From Naegleria gruberi (Eukaryota), in NCBI GenBank assembly GCA_000004985.1, contig GG738858.1: a stretch of DNA of 64,000 nt. One strand, written 5' to 3'. The notes beneath the pieces were generated by a model that was not told the origin of the DNA, did no database searches, and saw only the letters and a program-made list of their open reading frames with translations. A program made the translations under genes and the position numbers. Positions 1 through 48,053 of the stretch are shown piece by piece (position 1 is the first letter of the stretch; each line of letters begins with the position of its first letter).

Positions 1-1086
1 GGAAAGACAACGCTCATGAATAGAATACTTGGAAATGCAAAACAAATTGCAATGCAATACATTCATAACGATATTTTAAACAATATTCGAAAGGTCTGCG
101 AAAAGTGTGTCAATACTCAATCCATTTCGTCTCGTTTACATCAGCAATACCTTTCGTATTGCAAAACACTGATTGAATCAGCTCCCAAGAAAGACTTGGA
201 ACAGTCACCAACCAATTCGAAAACAATGAATTCATTTCCATCAAAATCTTCACCAGCTTTGCTTGTTCCAAAAACGGCAGAAATGATCATTGATTTATGG
301 ACGAATTGTTTAGTTTTCAAAGAAACTTTTGACAAGTATAGGGATGAATTGAATGTGAGTGATTCGTGTGAATATTTCTTCAATTCTTCAACGTTGGATC
401 GATTGTGTAAGGCTTCGAATATTCCCAATTTTGAAGATTCTCTTCGTATTCGAATGGAAACTAAAGGAGTCGATACAAGAAAAGTGTACTATAGTGAAAC
501 AGAAGGATTTCCAAAACTCCAACAACTAGCTATGGATGAGAAATTCCTCAAACAATATCCTAACTGTATTTCTGTATTAGATTTTGGTGGAAATTGCCGA
601 AAGAAATGGAAAGGTTACTTCCACAACATTACATTATGTGTATATTTAGTCAATTTAAGTTCGTTTAATAAGAAATCAAAAGAAAATCCAGAAAAGAATG
701 AACTTGTTGATAGTTTAGAACTGTTTGAAGAAATGGTCAACCATGAAAGTTTCAACAATATTCCAATTCTTCTCCTATTTAATAAGGTCGAGAGATTTTC
801 AAGTCTAATTGAGAGTGGAAATGATTTATGTAAAATATTTCCAGAATATGAGAATAGAGGGCAATCTGCTAAAGAACGAATTGAATCTTCCCTTTCTTTT
901 CTAAAATTGAAATTTGAATCAAAAGCTTGGTCAAGGAAAGATTATTTACATTGTCGATTTGTTTCATTGCTGAATAATCAGGATTCCAATCAAGTGCTCA
1001 TGGAAATGCTAACACTAAGTAAATTACTGAAGGAAGATTTTGTTTCAGATAATATTGACAAGAAGAAGAATTGTCTCATCATGTAA
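1..1086 (+). CDS. G-alpha-like GTPase, paralog 1 (5'-partial, runs off window start) with C-terminal CaaX box
   Basis: Open in frame from nt 1 (GKTTLMNRIL = end of a P-loop) to TAA at 1084-1086. Has a helical-domain-sized insert after the P-loop, DFGGNCRKKW (switch II-like) and LLLFNKVERF (NKxD-like). Clear paralog of the complete gene at 2747-4124 (same order of motifs, same KKKxCxIM tail). Ends ...KKKNCLIM. Confidence 0.7.
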   Translation, partial: GKTTLMNRILGNAKQIAMQYIHNDILNNIRKVCEKCVNTQSISSRLHQQYLSYCKTLIESAPKKDLEQSPTNSKTMNSFPSKSSPALLVPKTAEMIIDLWTNCLVFKETFDKYRDELNVSDSCEYFFNSSTLDRLCKASNIPNFEDSLRIRMETKGVDTRKVYYSETEGFPKLQQLAMDEKFLKQYPNCISVLDFGGNCRKKWKGYFHNITLCVYLVNLSSFNKKSKENPEKNELVDSLELFEEMVNHESFNNIPILLLFNKVERFSSLIESGNDLCKIFPEYENRGQSAKERIESSLSFLKLKFESKAWSRKDYLHCRFVSLLNNQDSNQVLMEMLTLSKLLKEDFVSDNIDKKKNCLIM

Positions 1087-1187
1087 CTCTCAAACTTAAA
1101 GTTTCAGTAAAGTTCACTATTAAGATGAGGAAGCATCTCTTAGAAATTTAATATTTAATTGAGAGTGTTTAATTTACAGTTTTACAA

Positions 1188-1828
1188 TTAAAAAACCAGC
1201 ATCAAAGCCCAAACCAATACAACAGTCATTGAAACCACAATACTATTTGCAGCACTCTTACATAAAAACAATTGAGGGTGACCAACTTGATAAATATCTG
1301 AGCAGCTACCAAGCATATCCATCTGTTGCCATGTACAACTTGTTTTTTCACAATTACTAGAATCACAATAAGATAGGCCATAACAGTGAGCATCAGCTAT
1401 TGCGTATTTTTTGATTAGAGGAAGATAAACACATTTACCAATTTGGAACTTATTAATCTCAATAATCTTATCACCATTAAAATGACAATAATCACCAACT
1501 TCAAAATCATGAATAGACCACCACCCAATTTCAGAAAAATCAGCTGGTAATGGATATTTATCTCCATCATAGCATGTTGTGGCGTTCTTCCAACCGAACG
1601 AGCTTGGATAAGAATTAATGCAAGCAGGATTGTTGTTACACAATTATCGTCAACATGATATCTATAGTGAACGATATTAGCATCGGATGAACATGATGCA
1701 GTATTATAAATTTTGGTTAAAGCAAGAGAAGCATCACCTGCCTTAACATGTTGAAGATTTTCCATCAAGTCTACTACAACCATAACAGAAACTAGTAAGG
1801 CACAGAGGTTTTGAACATGTGAGGACAT
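1188..1828 (-). CDS. Cysteine-rich secreted / GPI-anchor-like protein; two exons (or frameshifted)
   Basis: ATG at 1828-1826 followed by hydrophobic signal peptide (LCALLVSVMVVV). Downstream frame (1188-1586) encodes more than 12 Cys and a C-terminal hydrophobic tail (VVSMTVVLVWALMLVF). The two frames are reconciled by a 53-nt intron 1587-1639 (GTAACA...GGAAG), giving ...HVDDNC|NATTCYDGDKYP...; alternatively a frameshift. Confidence 0.4.
1587..1639 (-). other. Putative spliceosomal intron (53 nt, GTAACA..AG)
   Basis: Only GT..AG interval of 40-140 nt that joins the signal-peptide frame to the Cys-rich frame with correct phase. Confidence 0.3.
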
Positions 1829-2746
1829 TTTTTTTAAGCATGTTGAATTTAATTGTAAAATTTCGAATCTCCCATTTATGGATATTTTGAATATTAATTA
1901 CAGGGTTGTGTTTTTGTAAAAAGTTCATCTGCTTAAATCTCTCCATGACCTTAATGCCCACAGGCAAAACCACTCACAACCATACGGTTGCGACTATTAT
2001 TCATGGTTCATTACCATGGTCGGTATTTTAAGTTTTGACCAAGCCATTCCTTACTGCATATAATTGATATGCTCCCCTTAACAACTTTTCAAGCAACAAG
2101 TTCAAACAATATTGAGATATTGAGCAAAATCTTTAAGAAAGACAATTTCCTCACACAATTAAATAGTATGGAATATATTCCAATCAATCACATCAATATC
2201 CCTATTCACAAGCTGATTTTCAATAAAAAACTGGAAAATTGACTTGAAATTTGACTTGTTCCTTAGAAATTCAAAGAAACTTGTTGAATCTGTGTGAAAA
2301 TTCAAAATTTACCTGCAACTATCAAAATTTTGGTTGAGTTTTTAATAAGGGCCTTTCTCTTTTAGTGAACTAAATTAATGGACTCAGTTCTGTAATGTTC
2401 TTATAAGTTTCGTTTGGAAAATTCTCTATTTTATTCTAAAGTCAAACAGAATGCAACAAAATATTGTATTTATTGGCCAATGCTCTTCGCATGAATGTTA
2501 AAGGTTTCTTTTCTCCGAACTTGCAACCATATAATACTCTTAATGAGAAACCATGAGTTTCGAATGAAAAATAGCTAAACCTTAACAACCATGGATTTCT
2601 AACCACAATTTTATAAGCAGTCCTTATTTAGAAAGTTGGTCAATGTCAAAATCGGCACTATTTTCCCAATGGAGGAACGAAAATAAATGTTATTCATGCG
2701 AGTTGGACTAAACCTTTCGGGTAGATTTACTAACAAAAAAAAAGAG

Positions 2747-4124
2747 ATGCTTCGCTCCACAGGTGATCGTTCTGAAGTCGATCTAGACGAAATGCTAGAG
2801 CAAGATCAAGCTAAAATACTTTTATTTGGTTCAGGTATGTTGTAATGCAAGCCAAATAGATTAAATTATTATTCGAAACTTAGGCGATAGTGGCAAAACA
2901 ACCTTGTTAAAACAAATTCACGGAATGACATTTTCCAAATATTACAATCCAACACGTCTCGTGGGATCCATTGTTCAAGACATTCTCAAGAATGTAAGAT
3001 TAGTTTGCGAGAGATGCATCGAGGGAGGACAGATTAGTCAGGAAGAGTTTTCACAATGTGACTATATCATTCAGATTGCAAAATCAACGAATAGCACCTC
3101 CACACCAAAGAAATCCACAAGCACAACTCAGGATTCACCACTTCCTAGCTCACCAATCAACACGCCAGATAAGAGATCAAGTTATGGAGCTAATGCATCA
3201 TCACCTGTTGGTGGTGGTGGACATGGTGCTTCACCTGGAAGTGGAGCTGGATCACCATCTCGCATGAATAACTTGGTGAGTAAGATGGACGATGATTTGC
3301 CTGATAAGATTCTGAGATTATTGAATCATTCAGAAATATTTAGGAAAACTGTCGAATCATGCAGGGAGAATGAAAGATTGTCGGATGGAATTGAACATTT
3401 TTTGTTAAATTCATCAAATTTGAGAAGAGTTTGTGAGTTTAATTATGTTCCTTCGATAGCAGATATTGTATATTCAAGACAGAAAACAGTGGGTCTCATA
3501 GAAACGAGTATAAGATATCATGAAGTTGATGGATTTCCAAAGAAGGAAATTCACAACTTTAACGATTTGGAAAAACAATTTCCTAGAACCTTAAAACTTG
3601 TTGATACCGGTGGTCAATCATCTGAAAGAAGAAAATACAAGAATGTTTCATTTAGTAGTGTAAGAGCCTGTGTTTTTGTGGTCAACATGTCAGGTTTCAC
3701 TAAAAGTCTATACGAGAATGAGAATGTTAATGATCTGATTGATTCCATTGAACTTTTCAAAGAGTTATTCAATCAGCCATTCTATGAAAATGTACCAATA
3801 CTATTACTATTCAATAAGATGGACATGTTTAGCTATCAAATTCAGAAAGGAAAAGATTTAAGTTCTCTCTTTCCAGAATTTGACAATAATGCAACGATTT
3901 TAGAGGAAAAAGTTGATAACTCTCTCAAATTCCTATTCAAAAAGTACAAGGATACTCTAAATTCTAATCCAATACGAGTGCAATACATGCCAACCGCTCT
4001 AACTGATTTGAAAGATGCTCAGAAAGTATTCGAAAGAGTTATGGAACTGAGCGAATTACTAACTTGTCCCGAAAGAAACAATGAAATGACTTCTAATGAT
4101 AAGAAAAAGTGTACCATCATGTAA
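2747..4124 (+). CDS. G-alpha-like GTPase, paralog 2 (complete, 2 exons) with C-terminal CaaX box
   Basis: ATG 2747. Exon 1 2747-2834 (MLRSTGDRSEVDLDEMLEQDQAKILLFGS-G), exon 2 2884-4124. Splicing restores the P-loop LLFGSGDSGKTTLLKQIHG. Switch I SRQKTVGLIET, switch II LVDTGGQSSERRKY, NKMD box (LLLFNKMDMF), helical insert between P-loop and switch I. TAA 4122-4124. C-terminus ...KKKCTIM (CaaX). No N-terminal MGxxxS/MGC lipidation motif. Confidence 0.8.
2835..2883 (+). other. Spliceosomal intron (49 nt, GTATGT...CTTAG), phase 1
   Basis: Splits Gly codon G|GC. Removal creates the canonical GxxxxGK(T/S) P-loop. Confidence 0.8.
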
Positions 4125-4148: not shown

Positions 4149-5828
4149 TTATTGAGATGGAGTTGAAGGATTCAACCATGGTTTAGTCACTCTTGATACT
4201 GCCTTTTCAGATTGGAGGAAGGAGAGCAAGAGGCCATAATTAGTGATTGGAACACCTGCTTTGGATAGGTCAGAGAGACGGGCATTCATCTTTTGCTTAT
4301 CAATCATACATCCTCCACAGTGAATAATGAGTTTGTATTGGGAGAGATCCTTAATAAGCTGATACTCTCTGCCAAAGACAATATCCACCTTGATATTTCC
4401 CTGTCCAAATCTTTTTTCAATTGCTCTTGGTATTTGAACAGTACCGATATCATCTGCAATTCTGTTGTGATTACAAGCTTCACAGAGTAAGACTGAATCG
4501 CCTGGTTGGAGAGCTTTGAATGCTTCAATTCCTTTCAAAAATTCTGAAAGTCTTCCATTACTCATAAAGTTAATCATAATGACACTGAATGTAGTGATAT
4601 CAATAATACTCTCCTTTGTTGCCTCATCAATAGTCCATGGATGCACAATATCCATAGCTTGCGAGTCGGTAATTAAGAGTTGTAATTTTCCATTTGAATT
4701 AAGAGTTTTGATGGCTTCGAGGAATCTCTTCTTCTCCTTTTCCACAAGCTCCTTATCCGAACTTCTTGCATGTTTCAAATTCATTCTATATGAAAATACA
4801 TTGCTATACTCCCTGAGTAAATATTCATGAACCATGGCTTGAGGTTTGAGTAATCTACCAGATGGTGTCTCCTCATCCATTGGAATATTCAAAAATACAG
4901 TAGAGTTTTCCATTAAATTTGGAAGTAATCTTGTTGGATACATTGGAGTAGAGCTTGCCTTCATTTTACTCTTCTTGTGGCAATCTTCAATGAACTTGAT
5001 ACATTTGGTGTGAGCAATTTTTGATTCCAAATCCACACATGTAGTTCCACAGAAGTACTTATTCATTTGAACATTTCCCTGTTGCTCAAATTCATTGACT
5101 TTCAAATCAGTTTCAATCGAATCCAGCTTATCACTCAAACTCTCCACAGATGATCTCTTCAACTCGGAAACATTGAATATAATACAGAATGGTCTTTCAT
5201 TCTTTTCACACTCACCAGTCAACCATTTGGCTTGTTGAACACTGCTACCATTGAAAGGATCCACCACTACAACCACAATATCGGACTCTTTAAGGGCAAT
5301 CAGTGTTTTTTGTCTCTTCTTTTCGCCAAGATCTGATGCCTCATCAGTACCTGGTGTATCAAATAACTTTGTTGGACCAATACCGTGCAACTCCATAGTT
5401 GTCATCTTTACATCAGCAGTTGTACCAGGTGTAGAATCCACAATACTAGTATTTGAATTGGTCAAACAGTTCATCAGAGTTGATTTTCCACTATTCATAG
5501 CTCCAACAATTGCAATATTTGTCCTTTCAATGTAAATCGAGCCAATATTATTAGCACTATCACTTAAACTCACTCCAGAATGGAATAATTGTTTAGAATT
5601 CATTGAAAATTCCTTCATCATTATCTTTGTATTCATCATCATTTTCCATTCCGATGATCTTTTCACAGCTGATAATAATGGAAAATCCAACAATGAATTA
5701 CATTGTTGTATTGGCAATGATCTCCTCACAAGAGGTGAGGAACACAATGTTCGGATCAAGTGTTGTTGATGTGATTTCATTTTTTTAAAGTGCTTTTTCA
5801 TAAAACTAACCTTTTTAGTAACTTTCAT
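4149..5828 (-). CDS. hydF: HydF-type [FeFe]-hydrogenase maturation GTPase
   Basis: GTPase motifs G1 GAMNSGKST, G2 TPGTT, G3 DTPG. C-terminal FeS-cluster signature LLCEACNHN ...(45 aa)... IIHCGGC matches HydF CxHx(44-53)HCxxC. About 90-aa basic S/R/L-rich region precedes the GTPase domain (possible organellar presequence; true start may be an internal Met of the 5828 ORF). Confidence 0.85.
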   Translation of the reverse strand: MKVTKKVSFMKKHFKKMKSHQQHLIRTLCSSPLVRRSLPIQQCNSLLDFPLLSAVKRSSEWKMMMNTKIMMKEFSMNSKQLFHSGVSLSDSANNIGSIYIERTNIAIVGAMNSGKSTLMNCLTNSNTSIVDSTPGTTADVKMTTMELHGIGPTKLFDTPGTDEASDLGEKKRQKTLIALKESDIVVVVVDPFNGSSVQQAKWLTGECEKNERPFCIIFNVSELKRSSVESLSDKLDSIETDLKVNEFEQQGNVQMNKYFCGTTCVDLESKIAHTKCIKFIEDCHKKSKMKASSTPMYPTRLLPNLMENSTVFLNIPMDEETPSGRLLKPQAMVHEYLLREYSNVFSYRMNLKHARSSDKELVEKEKKRFLEAIKTLNSNGKLQLLITDSQAMDIVHPWTIDEATKESIIDITTFSVIMINFMSNGRLSEFLKGIEAFKALQPGDSVLLCEACNHNRIADDIGTVQIPRAIEKRFGQGNIKVDIVFGREYQLIKDLSQYKLIIHCGGCMIDKQKMNARLSDLSKAGVPITNYGLLLSFLQSEKAVSRVTKPWLNPSTPSQ

Positions 5829-19337: not shown

Positions 19338-21515
19338 TTAAAGTATTTTCTTTTCGAGTTGTTTGAGAATATTTTCGAGTAACTCAACAATTTTTGTGGT
19401 TCTGTTTTTGCACTTGGTTTCATCGAAATCTGAGAGATTAGTCAATTTCTTGACTTCGTTGTTGATATTCAATGGTTCCTTATTCAAGTATTTCAATCTG
19501 TTTTCATCTGTGGTATCCTTTGTGAATGATTTACCACATAGAGTAAAGTTACCAATTTGGAGATAGCAATTATCCATCTTCTTAGCCAATAATGGTTTGA
19601 TATTGCATAACTTGAGATTACGAGGATATTGCAAGTCGAAATTAGATGCATTCGGATCAGAAAGGAAGTCTTCAATGATTGGTAAAACAGTTGAGAAAAT
19701 CTTTTTAAGCTCATTACTTTGTTTCTTCTTTGATGGGGCAGTGCTGTCATTATTGGCTAATCTAATGATCTTCTTGCTCCATTGTGAATAATTGGATTCC
19801 TCACTGTCATCACTTGCCTTTTTGCCTCCCTTTTTCTTGCTCTTTGTCTTGGTCAATATGGTTGTGAGTTCCTTAAAATCAACAACTTTGTTGTTCAAAA
19901 GATTACTGATCTCAGCCATCATGTAAGAGAACTTGACCTTGGCAAAGTCACACAAGCAAACTTGGAGTACGTGATTGTGCCAAATTGCAATTAATTGCAA
20001 TACATCTGCTTCTTCAACCTTGGAACTGACATTATAGGTGAGAAAGTGTTGGCCATGTTCCTTGCAATGTGCAATAGCAATAAGAGTTGCTAGGACTATA
20101 TCTGAGGCCACTTTTTGTGCCTTTGGGAGGTAATTTTCAGCAATGTGGTGTGTTCTGCTGATCATCTTGTTAATAAGGTGATTCTTCTCATTATTAGTGG
20201 AGAATACAGGACGATTTGCTGAACTCTTTGATTGATGACCAATGAAAATAGGAGTCATGTAATTGTTCATGAAAGTTTCACCAAGATTTTCAATATTGAC
20301 AGTTGTCTTCATGTGGGAGGCAATTTGGTCAAGAAGTTTCAAATATTCTCTATTGCTAACATTCACATTCTTTGTTGGGTGTAGCAATTGATGAATGTTT
20401 TCAAGAATATTTGAGAAATCTTCGCCAACTTCTTGATACATGTGATTCCAAGAATCAACCATTTCTTGATTCTTTTGGTGATTGTGGCAACCAAATAATC
20501 TTCCAAAATCAAGCTTGAGTTTGTCCATTGGTGACAAATCCTTTCCTCTCAAATTCAAAGTACCAAAGATTGCTAGTTCATTAGCATGTTCTGGAACTGT
20601 AATGGTAACAACAATACAATTGTGACTCAAGAAGTGAATGAAATCAACCATTTCTTCTTGTTTCTTGAAAAGCTTTTTGATTTTAAGGATGGAATGCAAG
20701 AAGTTTTTGGCACAATTCATGGCAGAAGTGGAAGTAATCTCCTTTGCTTCTTCGAGCTTGGTGATTATTTCATCAACCTTGCTCTTCTTAAAGTCACCCT
20801 CGTCCATACTGGCCTTCTTTAAAATGTTAGCAAATCCCTTCTCTTCGACAATGTACTTTTTAAAGAATGTCTTTTCCTTTCCTGCTACACCTTCTTCATC
20901 ATTGCAAACCTCAATTCTTGCTTGACCTTTCAGAGTTCCCTTGTGAATCTTCAAGTAAACTTTGCTAATTGTCTCAAAATTTTCTTCATACTTTTTCTTA
21001 TTGATACATTCTCTGAGGGCAGAGTAAAGAATGGAGAGAGAGGTCAATCTTTGTTGACCATCTATTACTTGTTGTCTGTTACCTGCCTTTAGGACAATGG
21101 AGCCAATAAAGTAGCTGCTCTCTGGTTCATTCTTGTTATACTCATTGTAGACATCATCAAGAAGGTCCATAATGTTGTCGATCTCCCAAGCATAAGGACG
21201 TTGGTATTCAGGAATAGAATAGCACAATTCAAAAAGATTGTCAATTGCTCTATTGTTGGTGGTCAACTCCCAAGCTCTTCTTTCTGAGGCAACTATCTTT
21301 GGAGGAACAGGTGGACTGAATGTGAGTGGAGAATCTGTTGAAAATGGAAGAGAGGTATCACTCTTAGAGCTTGATGGAGTTGCTGGTTGTGAAGAAGAGG
21401 AAGGAGTACTGGCGATAATGGTTTGTTCCTTCTTGGTCTTCTTCTTGTCTTTCTTTGGGGTAATGTCAGAGCAGTCTCTGGTGTTTTTCTCTTCTTGTCT
21501 ACCCCCTTTGACCAC
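19338..21515 (-). CDS. DUF262 (GmrSD / ParB-like N-terminal domain) family protein with long C-terminal region; 5' end unresolved
   Basis: Hallmark DUF262 motifs IPEYQRPYAWE and SYFIGSIVLKAGNRQQVIDGQQRLTSL. S/T/P/K-rich N-terminal low complexity. C-terminal region with His-rich patches (THHIAENYLP, IAHCKEHGQH, IWHNHVL), possibly DUF1524/HNH-like. The 725-aa ORF has no ATG before the domain. An ATG at 21574 lies in another frame just upstream of a homopolymer at 21502-21506. Confidence 0.75.
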   Translation of the reverse strand: MVKGGRQEEKNTRDCSDITPKKDKKKTKKEQTIIASTPSSSSQPATPSSSKSDTSLPFSTDSPLTFSPPVPPKIVASERRAWELTTNNRAIDNLFELCYSIPEYQRPYAWEIDNIMDLLDDVYNEYNKNEPESSYFIGSIVLKAGNRQQVIDGQQRLTSLSILYSALRECINKKKYEENFETISKVYLKIHKGTLKGQARIEVCNDEEGVAGKEKTFFKKYIVEEKGFANILKKASMDEGDFKKSKVDEIITKLEEAKEITSTSAMNCAKNFLHSILKIKKLFKKQEEMVDFIHFLSHNCIVVTITVPEHANELAIFGTLNLRGKDLSPMDKLKLDFGRLFGCHNHQKNQEMVDSWNHMYQEVGEDFSNILENIHQLLHPTKNVNVSNREYLKLLDQIASHMKTTVNIENLGETFMNNYMTPIFIGHQSKSSANRPVFSTNNEKNHLINKMISRTHHIAENYLPKAQKVASDIVLATLIAIAHCKEHGQHFLTYNVSSKVEEADVLQLIAIWHNHVLQVCLCDFAKVKFSYMMAEISNLLNNKVVDFKELTTILTKTKSKKKGGKKASDDSEESNYSQWSKKIIRLANNDSTAPSKKKQSNELKKIFSTVLPIIEDFLSDPNASNFDLQYPRNLKLCNIKPLLAKKMDNCYLQIGNFTLCGKSFTKDTTDENRLKYLNKEPLNINNEVKKLTNLSDFDETKCKNRTTKIVELLENILKQLEKKIL

Positions 21516-44971: not shown

Positions 44972-45252
44972 TGATGTTGTTGTTATTGATGACGTGAAAT
45001 TGTTTTTTTAAATCAAATATCGAACAATGGTATGTTGTCTATTATGATGTGGTAATGGTAATAATTGTTGCGACAATATTTTGATTTTTTTCAATCTCCT
45101 TGATTTTCTCAGTGCTTCTTCTTCTTCTTACTGTTGAAGAGTAGTTTCAGTTAAAGCTCTCAAGTGTTGGGTGGACTTCGGAGTTTTGTTTTTCTTCCCT
45201 TTGAGAAGAATCTTCACCATTAATTCATCCATGGTTTACAAATTTTTTCATC

Positions 45253-47593
45253 TCACTCTAAGCGTGAGTAGCTCACTTCGTCGTAGGCAAATCCTTCGGA
45301 TGGATGTTCATTTTCTATTGAGGATGTAATTGGTTGTTGTTGTATCATATCAGAAATGTCAATATGTTCATATGGTTGTACATTGGCTTGGAATGAGTTA
45401 TTGACAAATACTTGACGAAGAATTACCAGCTCCCTTTCTTTTAAATATCTTTTGATTCTTTTCCCAACACAAATCATGCACAATAATAGATAGATGACAC
45501 AATTGTAGGACTCGACAACAACCTTATTGGAAGGATATAGTGCATAAGAGACGGCAAAACCCAATCCTGTAAAACAAATGGAGAGTACATCATGGAGGAA
45601 GTAGCTGAAAAATCTTGTGGATATCCAGAATCCTGTCTGTGAAAGAGTAAGTCTCTGGACCAGGTAAAATATCATGAACAATACGGTTGGCACTCCGAAT
45701 GAGAGGAGGAGTATCAAGAATTTTGTAATCTTAAAGTGTGTTAGTCTCCTTTGAAAGTGGAGCACTTACCTTAAATTGAAATAAGGGAACCTTCAATCTG
45801 ATAAATATCTTGGCTCCATAAATTACCAGTAAAAGCATGATCATTACAAACATGAATGTTGTACAAGCATAGAAAATCATAATTCCATAGAATAAATGAA
45901 TTGATAATTCAAACGAGACAAATACAAGAGAACTAACTAGGATAAAGACCATGATCACTGAGAGTGGAATGACAATCGCTAGCGAAATGTTGTGACTATT
46001 CTTTTCAACTCGAATCATTGTATCGATCCATAATGCCAATACAAACAATAAACTCGAATAATAACCAGCGTATCCATTCACAATTAAGTGAATACTATGA
46101 ATTGAAAACCCAGTATCAAGGAATAAGGCATTCTCCACTAAAAAACTAATACTTCCCCAAACCAGTGTTATCGCAGAAATAAATCGAATATTAAATAATA
46201 TTCTCATCCAACTCTTTCCAATGGCAGAGGAAGCATTGTTCTTGTAGAAATAAACTCCCTTCCTTAGAACCTTGTTGATTTGCTTTGGTCCTCTCTTTCT
46301 AAATGCTTTGTGAAGTTTTGGGATTTCAATATTACTCTTTGATATTTTCAAAATTAGTTCCATAATACCTTGAACTGTGAGAGGAATGCAAATCAATAAT
46401 GCTGCTATTAAAAATACCAATAGCTCGAATGCTAAATAGATTTTTCTTAGAACGCCTGATTCGTAGGCAGGATACCACAAATCATTGTAGTAATCACATT
46501 TTGTGGCAATTCTAATAATTGAATCTGACTGAGTTACATTAACATCAGATCCTTGTTCAAGCAACGTGGCCCGTGATGGACAAAAGCAAAGACTATATCC
46601 TGTAAGGAAAAAAGAATAATCTCCAGCCATATTGTATGTGACAATTTTGCCAATACTACTCATTGGAACTCCTTCAAGATCTTCCTCAGTAGCTTCTGAT
46701 GATTCACAGGAGAATGGATAATCAATAGTCATACAGATATCTCTATTCTCAATAACAGGATCTTTTCTATAATCACGACAAGCTCTACAAGCTGAAAAAA
46801 CATCAACAAGTTCAAAGCCAAACGAAAAGTTATGATTGAAAGAGGGAATCATTTGATTGAGAAGTGCATTATACTCGTCAGAAATGAAATCATCTTCCTG
46901 TGGAATCAATTTTCTTGATTCAATACTTTCAATATACCTCGAAACAAAATAAAGTGTTAATCTCTTTCCAAAAAATTCATCCTGCTTAATGTCATCCAAA
47001 GATGTGGGTATCAATTCAGTTAGGTTAATTCCAAATTTCTTTTCCTGATTAAATAGTTTTTCCTTCTCCCCTTGAGAAAAACATAATAATTGATCGCACA
47101 CATCTCCTAAATTATCTTTGAAATCCAACTGATCACACACATATGTTTTCTCTCCATGTTGATAAGAAGCATCTTCATCTGGATCAAAAAGGGACAACAT
47201 TGGTCCATCAGGTATTTGTTGATATAATGCAGGACATGAAAGTGGATTTGGTTGCTCCTTAAACCTTATGGTCCATTCACTTTGATTATAGAGTGGAATG
47301 TAAATATTAGTCAATCTATCTAAAACAGATGTTGAATAATGATTCTTACTATCGGGAGCATACAAGTATTTTCTCCAGTGTTTTCCATAAATCATGTAAG
47401 GGCAAGACGAAGGTGATACTGTATTATTGAGTGCATCATCTTGCTGTTGAAGATTTTGTGATATCATTTCACTTTCAAATGTTGATGCAAAGCAACTAAC
47501 ACCATTGCTACTAATTTCACTAATATACAATGCTACTATTATTACAACAAGGAGGAAGATTGAATCATTCCGCACCTTTTGAACATTAAACAT
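45253..47593 (-). CDS. Seven-transmembrane receptor-like protein with large cysteine-rich N-terminal ectodomain (candidate GPCR), 2 exons
   Basis: ATG 47593 followed by signal peptide (MFNVQKVRNDSIFLLVVIIVALYISEISS). About 330-aa Cys-rich extracellular region, then 5 TM helices in exon 1 (to 45770) and 2 more in exon 2 (45729-45253) = 7TM. Confidence 0.65.
45730..45769 (-). other. Spliceosomal intron (40 nt, GTAAGT...CTTTAAG), phase 0
   Basis: Canonical AAG|GTAAGT donor after ...PLFQFK. The only in-phase acceptor gives ITKFLILLLSFGVP... (TM6). Confidence 0.6.
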
Positions 47594-48053
47594 TCTCTGA
47601 TCAAACAATTCGTTTAATGATTTGACTCGAGTTGGTTGGATCTCTTCTTTTCATTAAGGCTAAAAAGCCGCTCCACAATAAACGATTAAAATTACGACCC
47701 CTTCCCTCCACAACAGTACAATAAAAGATGGATACTATAAAGTAGGGTTGCTGAAAAGATATTATCTCTTTTTTTTTTCTTTCTAAATTGGTGATTTTCA
47801 TGAGCGTGGAGTGCACAGAGGAGTGTAGGAGATTGTACAGAAAGAAACAAGTGAATTTCCAAGAGTGTGGTCGTATAATGCATGCATTGAATGGCCATAT
47901 TAGAGTACTGATAGAGTGTTATCTTGCTACTAGTTGGTTCCAATATCTGTCACTTCCAAAATGTCATAAAGCTCTCTTGCAAGGTGTTAGTTTTTTTAAA
48001 ACATTTTTAATTTAAAAATAAACTTTCAAAATGATTTTGAATCTGAAAAAAAA

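Follow-up and report, generated by a model that had tools for sequence, protein, structure and literature searches.

In the textbook division of lipid modifications among heterotrimeric G proteins, fatty acids are attached to the N-terminus of the alpha subunit and prenyl groups to the gamma subunit. Two genes at the beginning of a 64,000-nt stretch of Naegleria gruberi DNA (assembly GCA_000004985.1, contig GG738858.1; hereafter, the window) raise the question whether an alpha subunit may carry a prenyl anchor of its own. A preliminary description of this DNA had interpreted both genes, here called copy 1 and copy 2 in their order along the contig, as G-alpha-like guanosine triphosphatases (GTPases) that end in a lysine run and a CaaX box with Met as the last residue, KKK(N)C(L/T)IM, instead of beginning with an N-terminal acylation motif. 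This observation was confirmed, and its interpretation was supported as essentially right. The best explanation, and one that we consider probable, is that the two proteins are G-alphas anchored by a farnesyl group and a polybasic run, with a changed mode of membrane attachment.

The G-alpha pair and its C-terminal tails

Membership of both proteins in the G-alpha family, as claimed in the preliminary description, is settled. The Pfam G-alpha profile PF00503 (cutoff 48.8 bits) matched copy 2 with 229.9 bits, covering positions 15-331 of the 333 in the profile, and copy 1 with 178.7 bits, covering positions 54-328. Comparison by phmmer with Gi/Go/Gt structures yielded E values down to 4e-24 for copy 2 and 4e-20 for copy 1, and solved Naegleria and plant G-alpha chains were matched by the sequences of both copies as well. 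For copy 2, an alignment of 12 sequences was used to build an AlphaFold model, which reached a predicted template modelling score (pTM) of 0.72 and consists of a Ras-like domain and a helical domain, with helices 52-212 inserted between beta1 and switch I. The 50 best matches listed by Foldseek for this model in the PDB were all G-alpha, at target-normalised template modelling scores (TM-scores) of 0.71-0.88 over ~400 columns, and its fold matches those of Gi, Go, Gt, Gq, Gs and plant GPA1.

Copy 1 ends in SDNIDKKKNCLIM-TAA (1060-1086) and its protein in DKKKNCLIM, with CLIM-TAA at 1072-1086; copy 2 ends in MTSNDKKKCTIM-TAA (4101-4124) and its protein in DKKKCTIM, with CTIM-TAA at 4110-4124. 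In both copies three lysines stand immediately upstream of the CaaX box, Cys occupies position -4, a2 is Ile, X is Met and the stop codon follows directly after X. Both tails thereby satisfy the rules for farnesylation-type boxes, which ask for an aliphatic a2 and for Met, Ser, Gln, Ala or Cys at X (Zhang and Casey 1996, cited in PMC8003949). The tails are not a product of chance, because a C-terminal C-x-I-M is expected in ~3e-5 per protein from the local residue frequencies and because, among the window's 69 stop-to-stop open reading frames (ORFs) with 100 or more codons, copies 1 and 2 are the only two with a strict CaaX ending.

The tails of the two copies agree at 7 of 8 positions, while the proteins as a whole are 31% (BLASTP) to 36% (MAFFT) identical; the PILLLFNK core of the GTPase domain is the sole other segment that is conserved to this extent. 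Since the copies have diverged so far and yet both keep the polybasic CaaX box, the tail is old and retained, and this retention through extensive divergence is the main argument for a functional tail. The tail of copy 1 is also identical in L001 (ENA ERZ929261, contig k127_97127), which comes from an N. gruberi-like strain in an environmental metagenome. Over 2.2 kb the DNA of L001 is ~96% identical to the locus; the contig includes a copy 1 of 98% identity together with the 1.5 kb that precede it.

In the copy 2 model, alpha5 corresponds to the helix 405-423, and residues 424-442 have a predicted local distance difference test score (pLDDT) of <50. Cys439 is placed ~15-19 residues past alpha5 in a predicted disordered linker, so that, judged from the model, a flexible linker of ~15-20 residues would extend past the point where G-alphas normally stop and carry the CaaX box at its tip, in the way of the hypervariable region of Ras. 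A second membrane signal beside the box on such a linker, either a polybasic run or a palmitoylatable Cys, belongs to the traits of farnesyltransferase substrates, and the KKK of both copies is of this kind.

To place these tails among related proteins, 1.84 billion representative proteins were searched by HMMER with a profile of both copies. The copies themselves scored 892 and 626 bits, the next match 163 bits, and ~3,200 G-alpha relatives were found at E <=1e-10. The termini of 243 retrieved G-alpha relatives of at least 250 aa, the pair included, were then inspected. A polybasic CaaX tail was present in none of the 241 others (0/241), in agreement with the preliminary description, which had called such a box on G-alpha unusual. 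Cys at -4 was found in five of them, with the Gi/o-type endings CGLY, CGLL, CELF or CGDH and no basic residues.

These five relatives bear on an alternative in which the C-terminal Cys of the pair is not prenylated and represents either a relic of the Gi/o type, whose CGLF ending is the pertussis-toxin site, or a residue with another role, such as palmitoylation or part of a basic targeting patch. It also speaks for this alternative that wild-type Gi alpha is reportedly not isoprenylated unless its C-terminus is mutated. However, the Gi/o Cys is located in the last turn of alpha5 (NLxxCGL[FY]) without a basic run, whereas the Cys considered here lies in the linker described above, is preceded by KKK and is followed by (L/T)-I-M, with the same terminal Met as CVIM of K-Ras4B and CMIM of the N. 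gruberi G-gamma. A relic of the pertussis-toxin site was rejected on both position and sequence context, and we judge the alternative as a whole to be very unlikely.

At the N-terminus, copy 2 starts with MLRSTGDRSEV and copy 1, as read from L001, with MLKNTLALSGV; both are without Gly2 and have no Cys before the P-loop, and the same holds if copy 2 is started at the in-frame ATG 2687 (MLFMRVG). The statement that neither protein begins with MG is therefore true for copy 2 within the window and was verifiable for copy 1 through L001. At the sequence level, N-myristoylation and N-terminal palmitoylation are excluded for both copies. An N-terminal acylation site is typical of the G-alpha family and not strictly defining; among the retrieved relatives that begin with Met, 146/231 start with MG. 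In the pair, beta1 is preceded by only 22-25 residues, most of which are acidic. In the copy 2 model a short helix (13-18) is all that precedes beta1, in place of the canonical long alphaN helix that binds G-beta-gamma.

Relatives, gene structure and catalytic motifs

The best-scoring named HMMER matches were generic G-alphas of chytrids, protists and one species of Caenorhabditis, and some of these are long proteins with multiple stretches. The heterolobosean relatives from Willaertia magna and Acrasis kona scored ~125 bits and have MG starts and ordinary C-termini. Two scans of Joint Genome Institute (JGI) metagenomes, in which the query was a single protein or the alignment of both copies, detected no orthologs, only two generic fragments of 38% identity (L002, L003). 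Word-index searches with copy 1, copy 2 and the 12-sequence profile returned no other Naegleria paralogs, the index being too insensitive for so divergent a pair, and ~42 other N. gruberi G-alphas lie outside the tail survey. The comparison of orthologs for CaaX tails suggested in the preliminary description could be made on the retrieved relatives, but no ortholog of the pair itself was found to compare. By these searches the pair appears to be a deeply diverged, N. gruberi-specific branch.

According to a review, N. gruberi has 44 G-alpha subunits, and some Naegleria G-alphas have degenerate catalytic motifs or are without the N-terminal tethering residues (PMC8584482). These two traits are hence already known in general terms. 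A naturally CaaX-bearing G-alpha was not described in the literature searched, an earlier mention in Anantharaman et al. 2011 (Gene 475:63) not being excluded, and a review of G-alpha membrane interactions treats prenylation solely as a matter of G-gamma (PMC8003949). The predicted polybasic CaaX anchor thus appears in no other G-alpha sampled and not in the searchable literature.

Copy 2 is represented by an annotated gene. Its spliced product (2747-2834 + 2884-4124) is 100% identical to the annotated N. gruberi "predicted protein" P0001 of 442 aa, by which the gene model and the organism are confirmed; the intron proposed at 2835-2883 in the preliminary description is exactly that of the annotated model. 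For copy 1, a 5' exon had been postulated outside the window. This exon was found in L001 (MLKNTLALSGVEFDDEDPVLDSENPKILLLGS), followed by an intron of 41 nt (GTAAGT...CAG) and then NDCGKTTL. Both start codons have a like context, an A-run and then GA(G/AC)ATGCT (window 2731-2749; L001 1330-1349), and because this context is common to the two copies, ATG 2747 is favoured over the in-frame upstream ATGs 2687 and 2696. The genes lie on the same strand with 1.66 kb between them. They had been called tandem but are not strictly adjacent, as a small minus-strand gene is located in between; they are neighbouring paralogs and not a strict tandem.

Several derived characters are common to the pair. The intron interrupts the P-loop at the same position and in the same phase in both copies. 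Both have homologous inserts of ~20 residues in the beta2-beta3 hairpin that contain GFPK and are absent from ten other G-alphas aligned, and in both the Ala of the G5 motif is replaced by Leu. Because intron, insert, G5 Leu, tail and missing acylation sites are all common to both, the common ancestor of the pair already had this architecture, and the copies are two old, diverged paralogs within the lineage-specific G-alpha expansion of N. gruberi. A 60-residue insert in the helical domain of copy 2 is largely absent from copy 1. It resembles the low-complexity insert of Nf G-alpha-6 of N. fowleri, which lies N-terminal to switch I and whose deletion abolished activation (Bosch et al., PMC9283941).

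The two copies differ in their catalytic motifs. Copy 2 has the P-loop GSGDSGKT (2828-2900, spanning the intron) and keeps both the catalytic Arg and the catalytic Gln; its G5 motif is TALTD instead of the usual TCATD. With these residues in place, copy 2 should cycle. For copy 1, the preliminary description had listed degenerate motifs, of which DFGGN and NKVE were found as described, but switch I is not weak, since RMETKG preserves each conserved residue of RxxTxG (Arg, Thr and Gly). Copy 1 retains the catalytic Arg but has Asn for the catalytic Gln; its G5 motif is VSLLN. Moreover, its P-loop, seen in L001, reads GSNDCGKT, in which Asn replaces the Gly that corresponds to Gly12 of Ras and Gly42 of Gi-alpha1. 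Substitution of the P-loop Gly or of the switch II Gln is a classical GTPase-killing change. In N. fowleri G-alpha1, a variant P-loop with Ala at this Gly (23-TAQ-25) was found experimentally to slow hydrolysis and to abolish responsiveness to regulators of G protein signalling (RGS) (Bosch et al., PMC9283941). Because of the P-loop Asn at the Ras Gly12 position, the Asn for the catalytic Gln and NKVE, copy 1 is probably GTPase-impaired, being either locked on or a nucleotide-independent scaffold.

Such degeneration could also be taken to mean that copy 1 is a decaying pseudogene or, more generally, that the tails are gene-model artefacts and that transcripts splice past the CaaX codons. Consistent with this, the homolog search returned no NCBI-sourced protein for copy 1, the sole match being a metagenome ORF. 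However, both copies stop right after the CaaX box at homologous positions, the annotated copy 2 protein terminates at the same CTIM, and no good splice donor of the GTAAGT or GTATGT type overlaps either tail. With L001 used as a second allele, copy 1 showed 10 synonymous and 6 non-synonymous differences, corresponding to a synonymous rate (dS) of 0.048, a non-synonymous rate (dN) of 0.007 and a dN/dS of 0.146. Neutrality was rejected (binomial P = 2.5e-4), and the ORF, the splice sites and the tail are intact in L001. Copy 1 is maintained under purifying selection; its status as a pseudogene was rejected on the dN/dS value, and an artefact of either kind is extremely improbable.

Predicted membrane attachment and other genes of the window

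In the proposed mechanism, the C-terminal Cys of each protein would be farnesylated by protein farnesyltransferase, in line with Met at X, whereupon the last three residues would be trimmed and the new terminus carboxymethylated. The farnesyl group and the lysines would together keep the protein on the plasma membrane, at its acidic inner leaflet, in the manner of K-Ras4B, and this C-terminal anchor would take the place of the N-terminal myristoyl and palmitoyl groups. Because the N. gruberi G-gamma ends in CCMIM (PMC3508898), boxes with X = Met appear to be in use in the G-protein system of this species. N. fowleri has a farnesyltransferase gene (PMC7560193), and prenylation machinery is plausible for the genus.

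The consequences for coupling may be considerable. Canonical G-alpha proteins insert their free alpha5 C-terminus into the activated receptor and bind G-beta-gamma with their long N-terminal helix. Since the C-terminus of the pair is extended and would be lipid-tethered, and since the N-terminus is short and acidic, receptor-driven nucleotide exchange most likely does not occur, and perhaps no G-beta-gamma is needed. Instead, the proteins may be self-activating switches that are turned off by RGS proteins. Naegleria G-alphas can be self-activating and are regulated by a large family of GTPase-activating proteins that combine seven transmembrane segments (7TM) with an RGS domain; P-loop Gly substitutions slow hydrolysis in a Naegleria G-alpha (Bosch et al., PMC9283941). 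Copy 2 would then be the cycling switch and copy 1 its hydrolysis-deficient or nucleotide-independent partner. Carried to its end, this reasoning describes a hitherto undescribed class of G-alpha that converged on the mode of K-Ras4B, with its own C-terminal anchor, without G-beta-gamma or receptor exchange, and in which a second paralog, GTPase-dead yet under selection, serves as a constitutive partner or as a scaffold. We consider so comprehensive a scheme possible but doubtful.

Alternatively, the two proteins could be canonical heterotrimeric subunits in which the prenyl tail only replaces the N-terminal lipid. They would then continue to bind G-beta-gamma and to be activated by 7TM receptors, with which they would dock in a changed geometry. 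In favour of this, copy 2 has kept all main residues of catalysis and of the switches, genes for G-beta, G-gamma and candidate 7TM receptors are present in Naegleria (PMC9283941), and a 7TM-like ORF lies within the window. Against this, the alpha5 end is longer by ~15-20 residues and would be fixed at the membrane, whereas the receptor core needs a free end; in the copy 2 model, beta1 is preceded by a very short helix; both copies carry the 20-residue beta2-beta3 insert beside the switch regions; and the 7TM-like gene is 41 kb distant and matches no family. On balance we regard canonical coupling as unlikely.

Several points weigh against the preferred explanation, farnesyl/polybasic anchoring with a changed mode of attachment. 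In CTIM of copy 2, a1 is Thr and thus not aliphatic (a1 of copy 1 is Leu); the a1 position of CaaX boxes is permissive. With the G5 substitution of Ala by Leu in both copies and that of the switch II Trp by Tyr in copy 2, even copy 2 may not bind guanine nucleotide normally. No ortholog is present in other species in the databases, and the conservation of the tail is that between two paralogs and one near-identical strain. Finally, the case for independence from receptor and G-beta-gamma is purely anatomical; we put it forward tentatively and lean somewhat against it.

The features of the pair and of the two other genes discussed with it are compiled in Table 1. The window has a G+C content of ~33%, and its long ORFs are interrupted by short introns.

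Table 1. Positions of the G-alpha pair, its motifs and two other genes in the window
Feature	Position	Strand	Remarks
Copy 1, exon 2	1..1086	+	From P-loop GKTT to stop; 5' end cut by window edge
Copy 1, switch I RMETKG	451..468	+	Catalytic Arg, Thr and Gly kept (alignment)
Copy 1, beta2-beta3 hairpin insert	493..564	+	~20 residues, SETEGFPKLQQLAMDEKFLKQYPN; alignment
Copy 1, switch II DFGGN	580..594	+	Catalytic Gln replaced by Asn
Copy 1, G4 NKVE	781..792	+	Replaces NKxD
Copy 1, C-terminal extension past alpha5	1030..1083	+	KKKN-CLIM 1060-1083; stop 1084-1086
Intervening gene	1188..1828	-	Small Cys-rich protein with signal peptide; not part of the G-alpha pair
Copy 2, exon 1	2747..2834	+	MLRSTGDRSEVDLDEMLEQDQAKILLFGS and first base of Gly codon; no Gly2, no Cys; spliced product is P0001
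Copy 2, intron	2835..2883	+	49 nt, GTATGT...TAG, phase 1, within P-loop codons (LLFGS/G DSGKTT)
Copy 2, exon 2	2884..4124	+	Remaining P-loop, helical domain, switch regions, NKMD, alpha5, tail
Copy 2, low-complexity insert	3084..3260	+	Ser/Thr/Pro/Gly-rich, in helical domain; predicted disordered, pLDDT <50 for residues 101-161
Copy 2, switch I RQKTVG	3477..3494	+	Catalytic Arg and Thr present
Copy 2, beta2-beta3 hairpin insert	3519..3587	+	HEVDGFPKKEIHNFNDLEKQFPR; homologous to copy 1 insert; alignment
Copy 2, switch II DTGGQ	3603..3617	+	Catalytic Gln present; switch II Trp replaced by Tyr (ERRKY)
Copy 2, G4 NKMD	3813..3824	+	Sequence match
Copy 2, C-terminal extension past alpha5	4062..4121	+	TCPERNNEMTSNDKKKCTIM; predicted flexible; KKK-CTIM 4101-4121; stop 4122-4124
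7TM-like ORF	45731-47608 (region 45200-47700)	-	Probable downstream exon, apparently one intron; no Pfam family

The protein of the intervening gene has an N-terminal signal-like segment and a C-terminal hydrophobic segment, and no Pfam match was obtained for it. In L001 (2679-3320) this gene is an intact ORF of 213 aa, whereas its version in the window changes reading frame near position 1631. The cause could be a frameshift peculiar to this strain or a mistake in the assembly.

The preliminary description had also pointed to a 7TM receptor gene at 45253-47593. The ORF found there encodes a large N-terminal region of ~440 aa followed by 7-8 hydrophobic segments, which agrees with that claim as far as the segments are concerned, but at E values as high as 1 it still matched no Pfam family, and it has no RGS domain. 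A functional link to the G-alpha pair was rejected, given the lack of a family match, the distance and the absence of operon logic in eukaryotic gene order.

Two further genes were noticed. Directly downstream of copy 2, on the minus strand (4149-5828), lies a homolog of HydF, the [FeFe]-hydrogenase maturase; its 559 aa comprise tetramerisation, dimerisation and GTPase domains and an N-terminal extension of ~100 residues. HydF is an anaerobe-type maturase, here found in an aerobic amoeba. A 725-aa ORF at 19338-21515, also on the minus strand, gave a strong match (112 bits) to GmrSD_N, a domain that forms the N-terminal part of type IV restriction endonucleases in bacteria. This domain is unusual in a eukaryotic nuclear gene and may have been acquired horizontally.

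Comparison with known G proteins

With the heterotrimeric G-alphas of PF00503 the pair has in common the Ras-like GTPase domain with its inserted helical domain and, in copy 2, all of the P-loop, RxxTxG, DxxGQ and NKxD. It departs from them in lacking Gly2 and Cys for myristoylation and palmitoylation, in its very short N-terminal helix, in the 20-residue beta2-beta3 insert together with the G5 Leu, and in the added C-terminal extension of 15-20 residues with its polybasic CaaX box. Among the Heterolobosea no close ortholog was found, the matches from Willaertia and Acrasis being generic. Within Naegleria, where 13 G-alpha proteins are known from N. fowleri (Bosch et al. 2022), degenerate motifs and lost N-terminal lipid sites were likewise reported for some members of the G-alpha expansion in the review cited above (PMC8584482). 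The pair is confined to N. gruberi in public data, and the scope of our conclusions is accordingly that of sequence inference in one species. Within this scope it offers a testable entry to the question why Naegleria keeps dozens of G-alpha paralogs, some of them catalytically degenerate.

The Cys of the Gi/o/t endings CGLF and CGLY is also located four residues from the G-alpha C-terminus. In contrast to the Cys of the pair, it is part of the segment of alpha5 that docks into the receptor, lacks a preceding basic run and is followed by Gly-Leu and a terminal Phe, Tyr or Leu; it is a site of ADP-ribosylation by pertussis toxin and not of prenylation. A C-terminal CaaX box is shared with G-gamma, including Met at X in N. 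gruberi (PMC3508898), but here the box is on the alpha subunit, and G-beta-gamma would be unnecessary for membrane anchoring.

The closest resemblance is to K-Ras4B, in which a like run of lysines directly precedes C-a-a-M (CVIM) on a flexible linker that follows the final helix of the GTPase domain. The carrier in the pair is, however, a G-alpha of 40-50 kDa with a helical domain and not a small GTPase, the lysines number three compared with six or more in K-Ras4B, and the modification is predicted. If it takes place, a natural G-alpha with a Ras-style prenyl anchor on its receptor-docking end would clearly exemplify a G-alpha made to function uncoupled from receptors.

A precedent for swapping the type of lipid anchor within a conserved GTPase family is Rheb, in which the prenylated C-terminus is the ancestral attachment and was altered in multiple lineages (PMC5869587). 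In the pair the direction would be from N-terminal acylation to a C-terminal CaaX box, and in the G-alpha family, for which we found no report of such a change. If the prediction is true, membrane-anchor swapping, known in small GTPases, extends to the heterotrimeric family.

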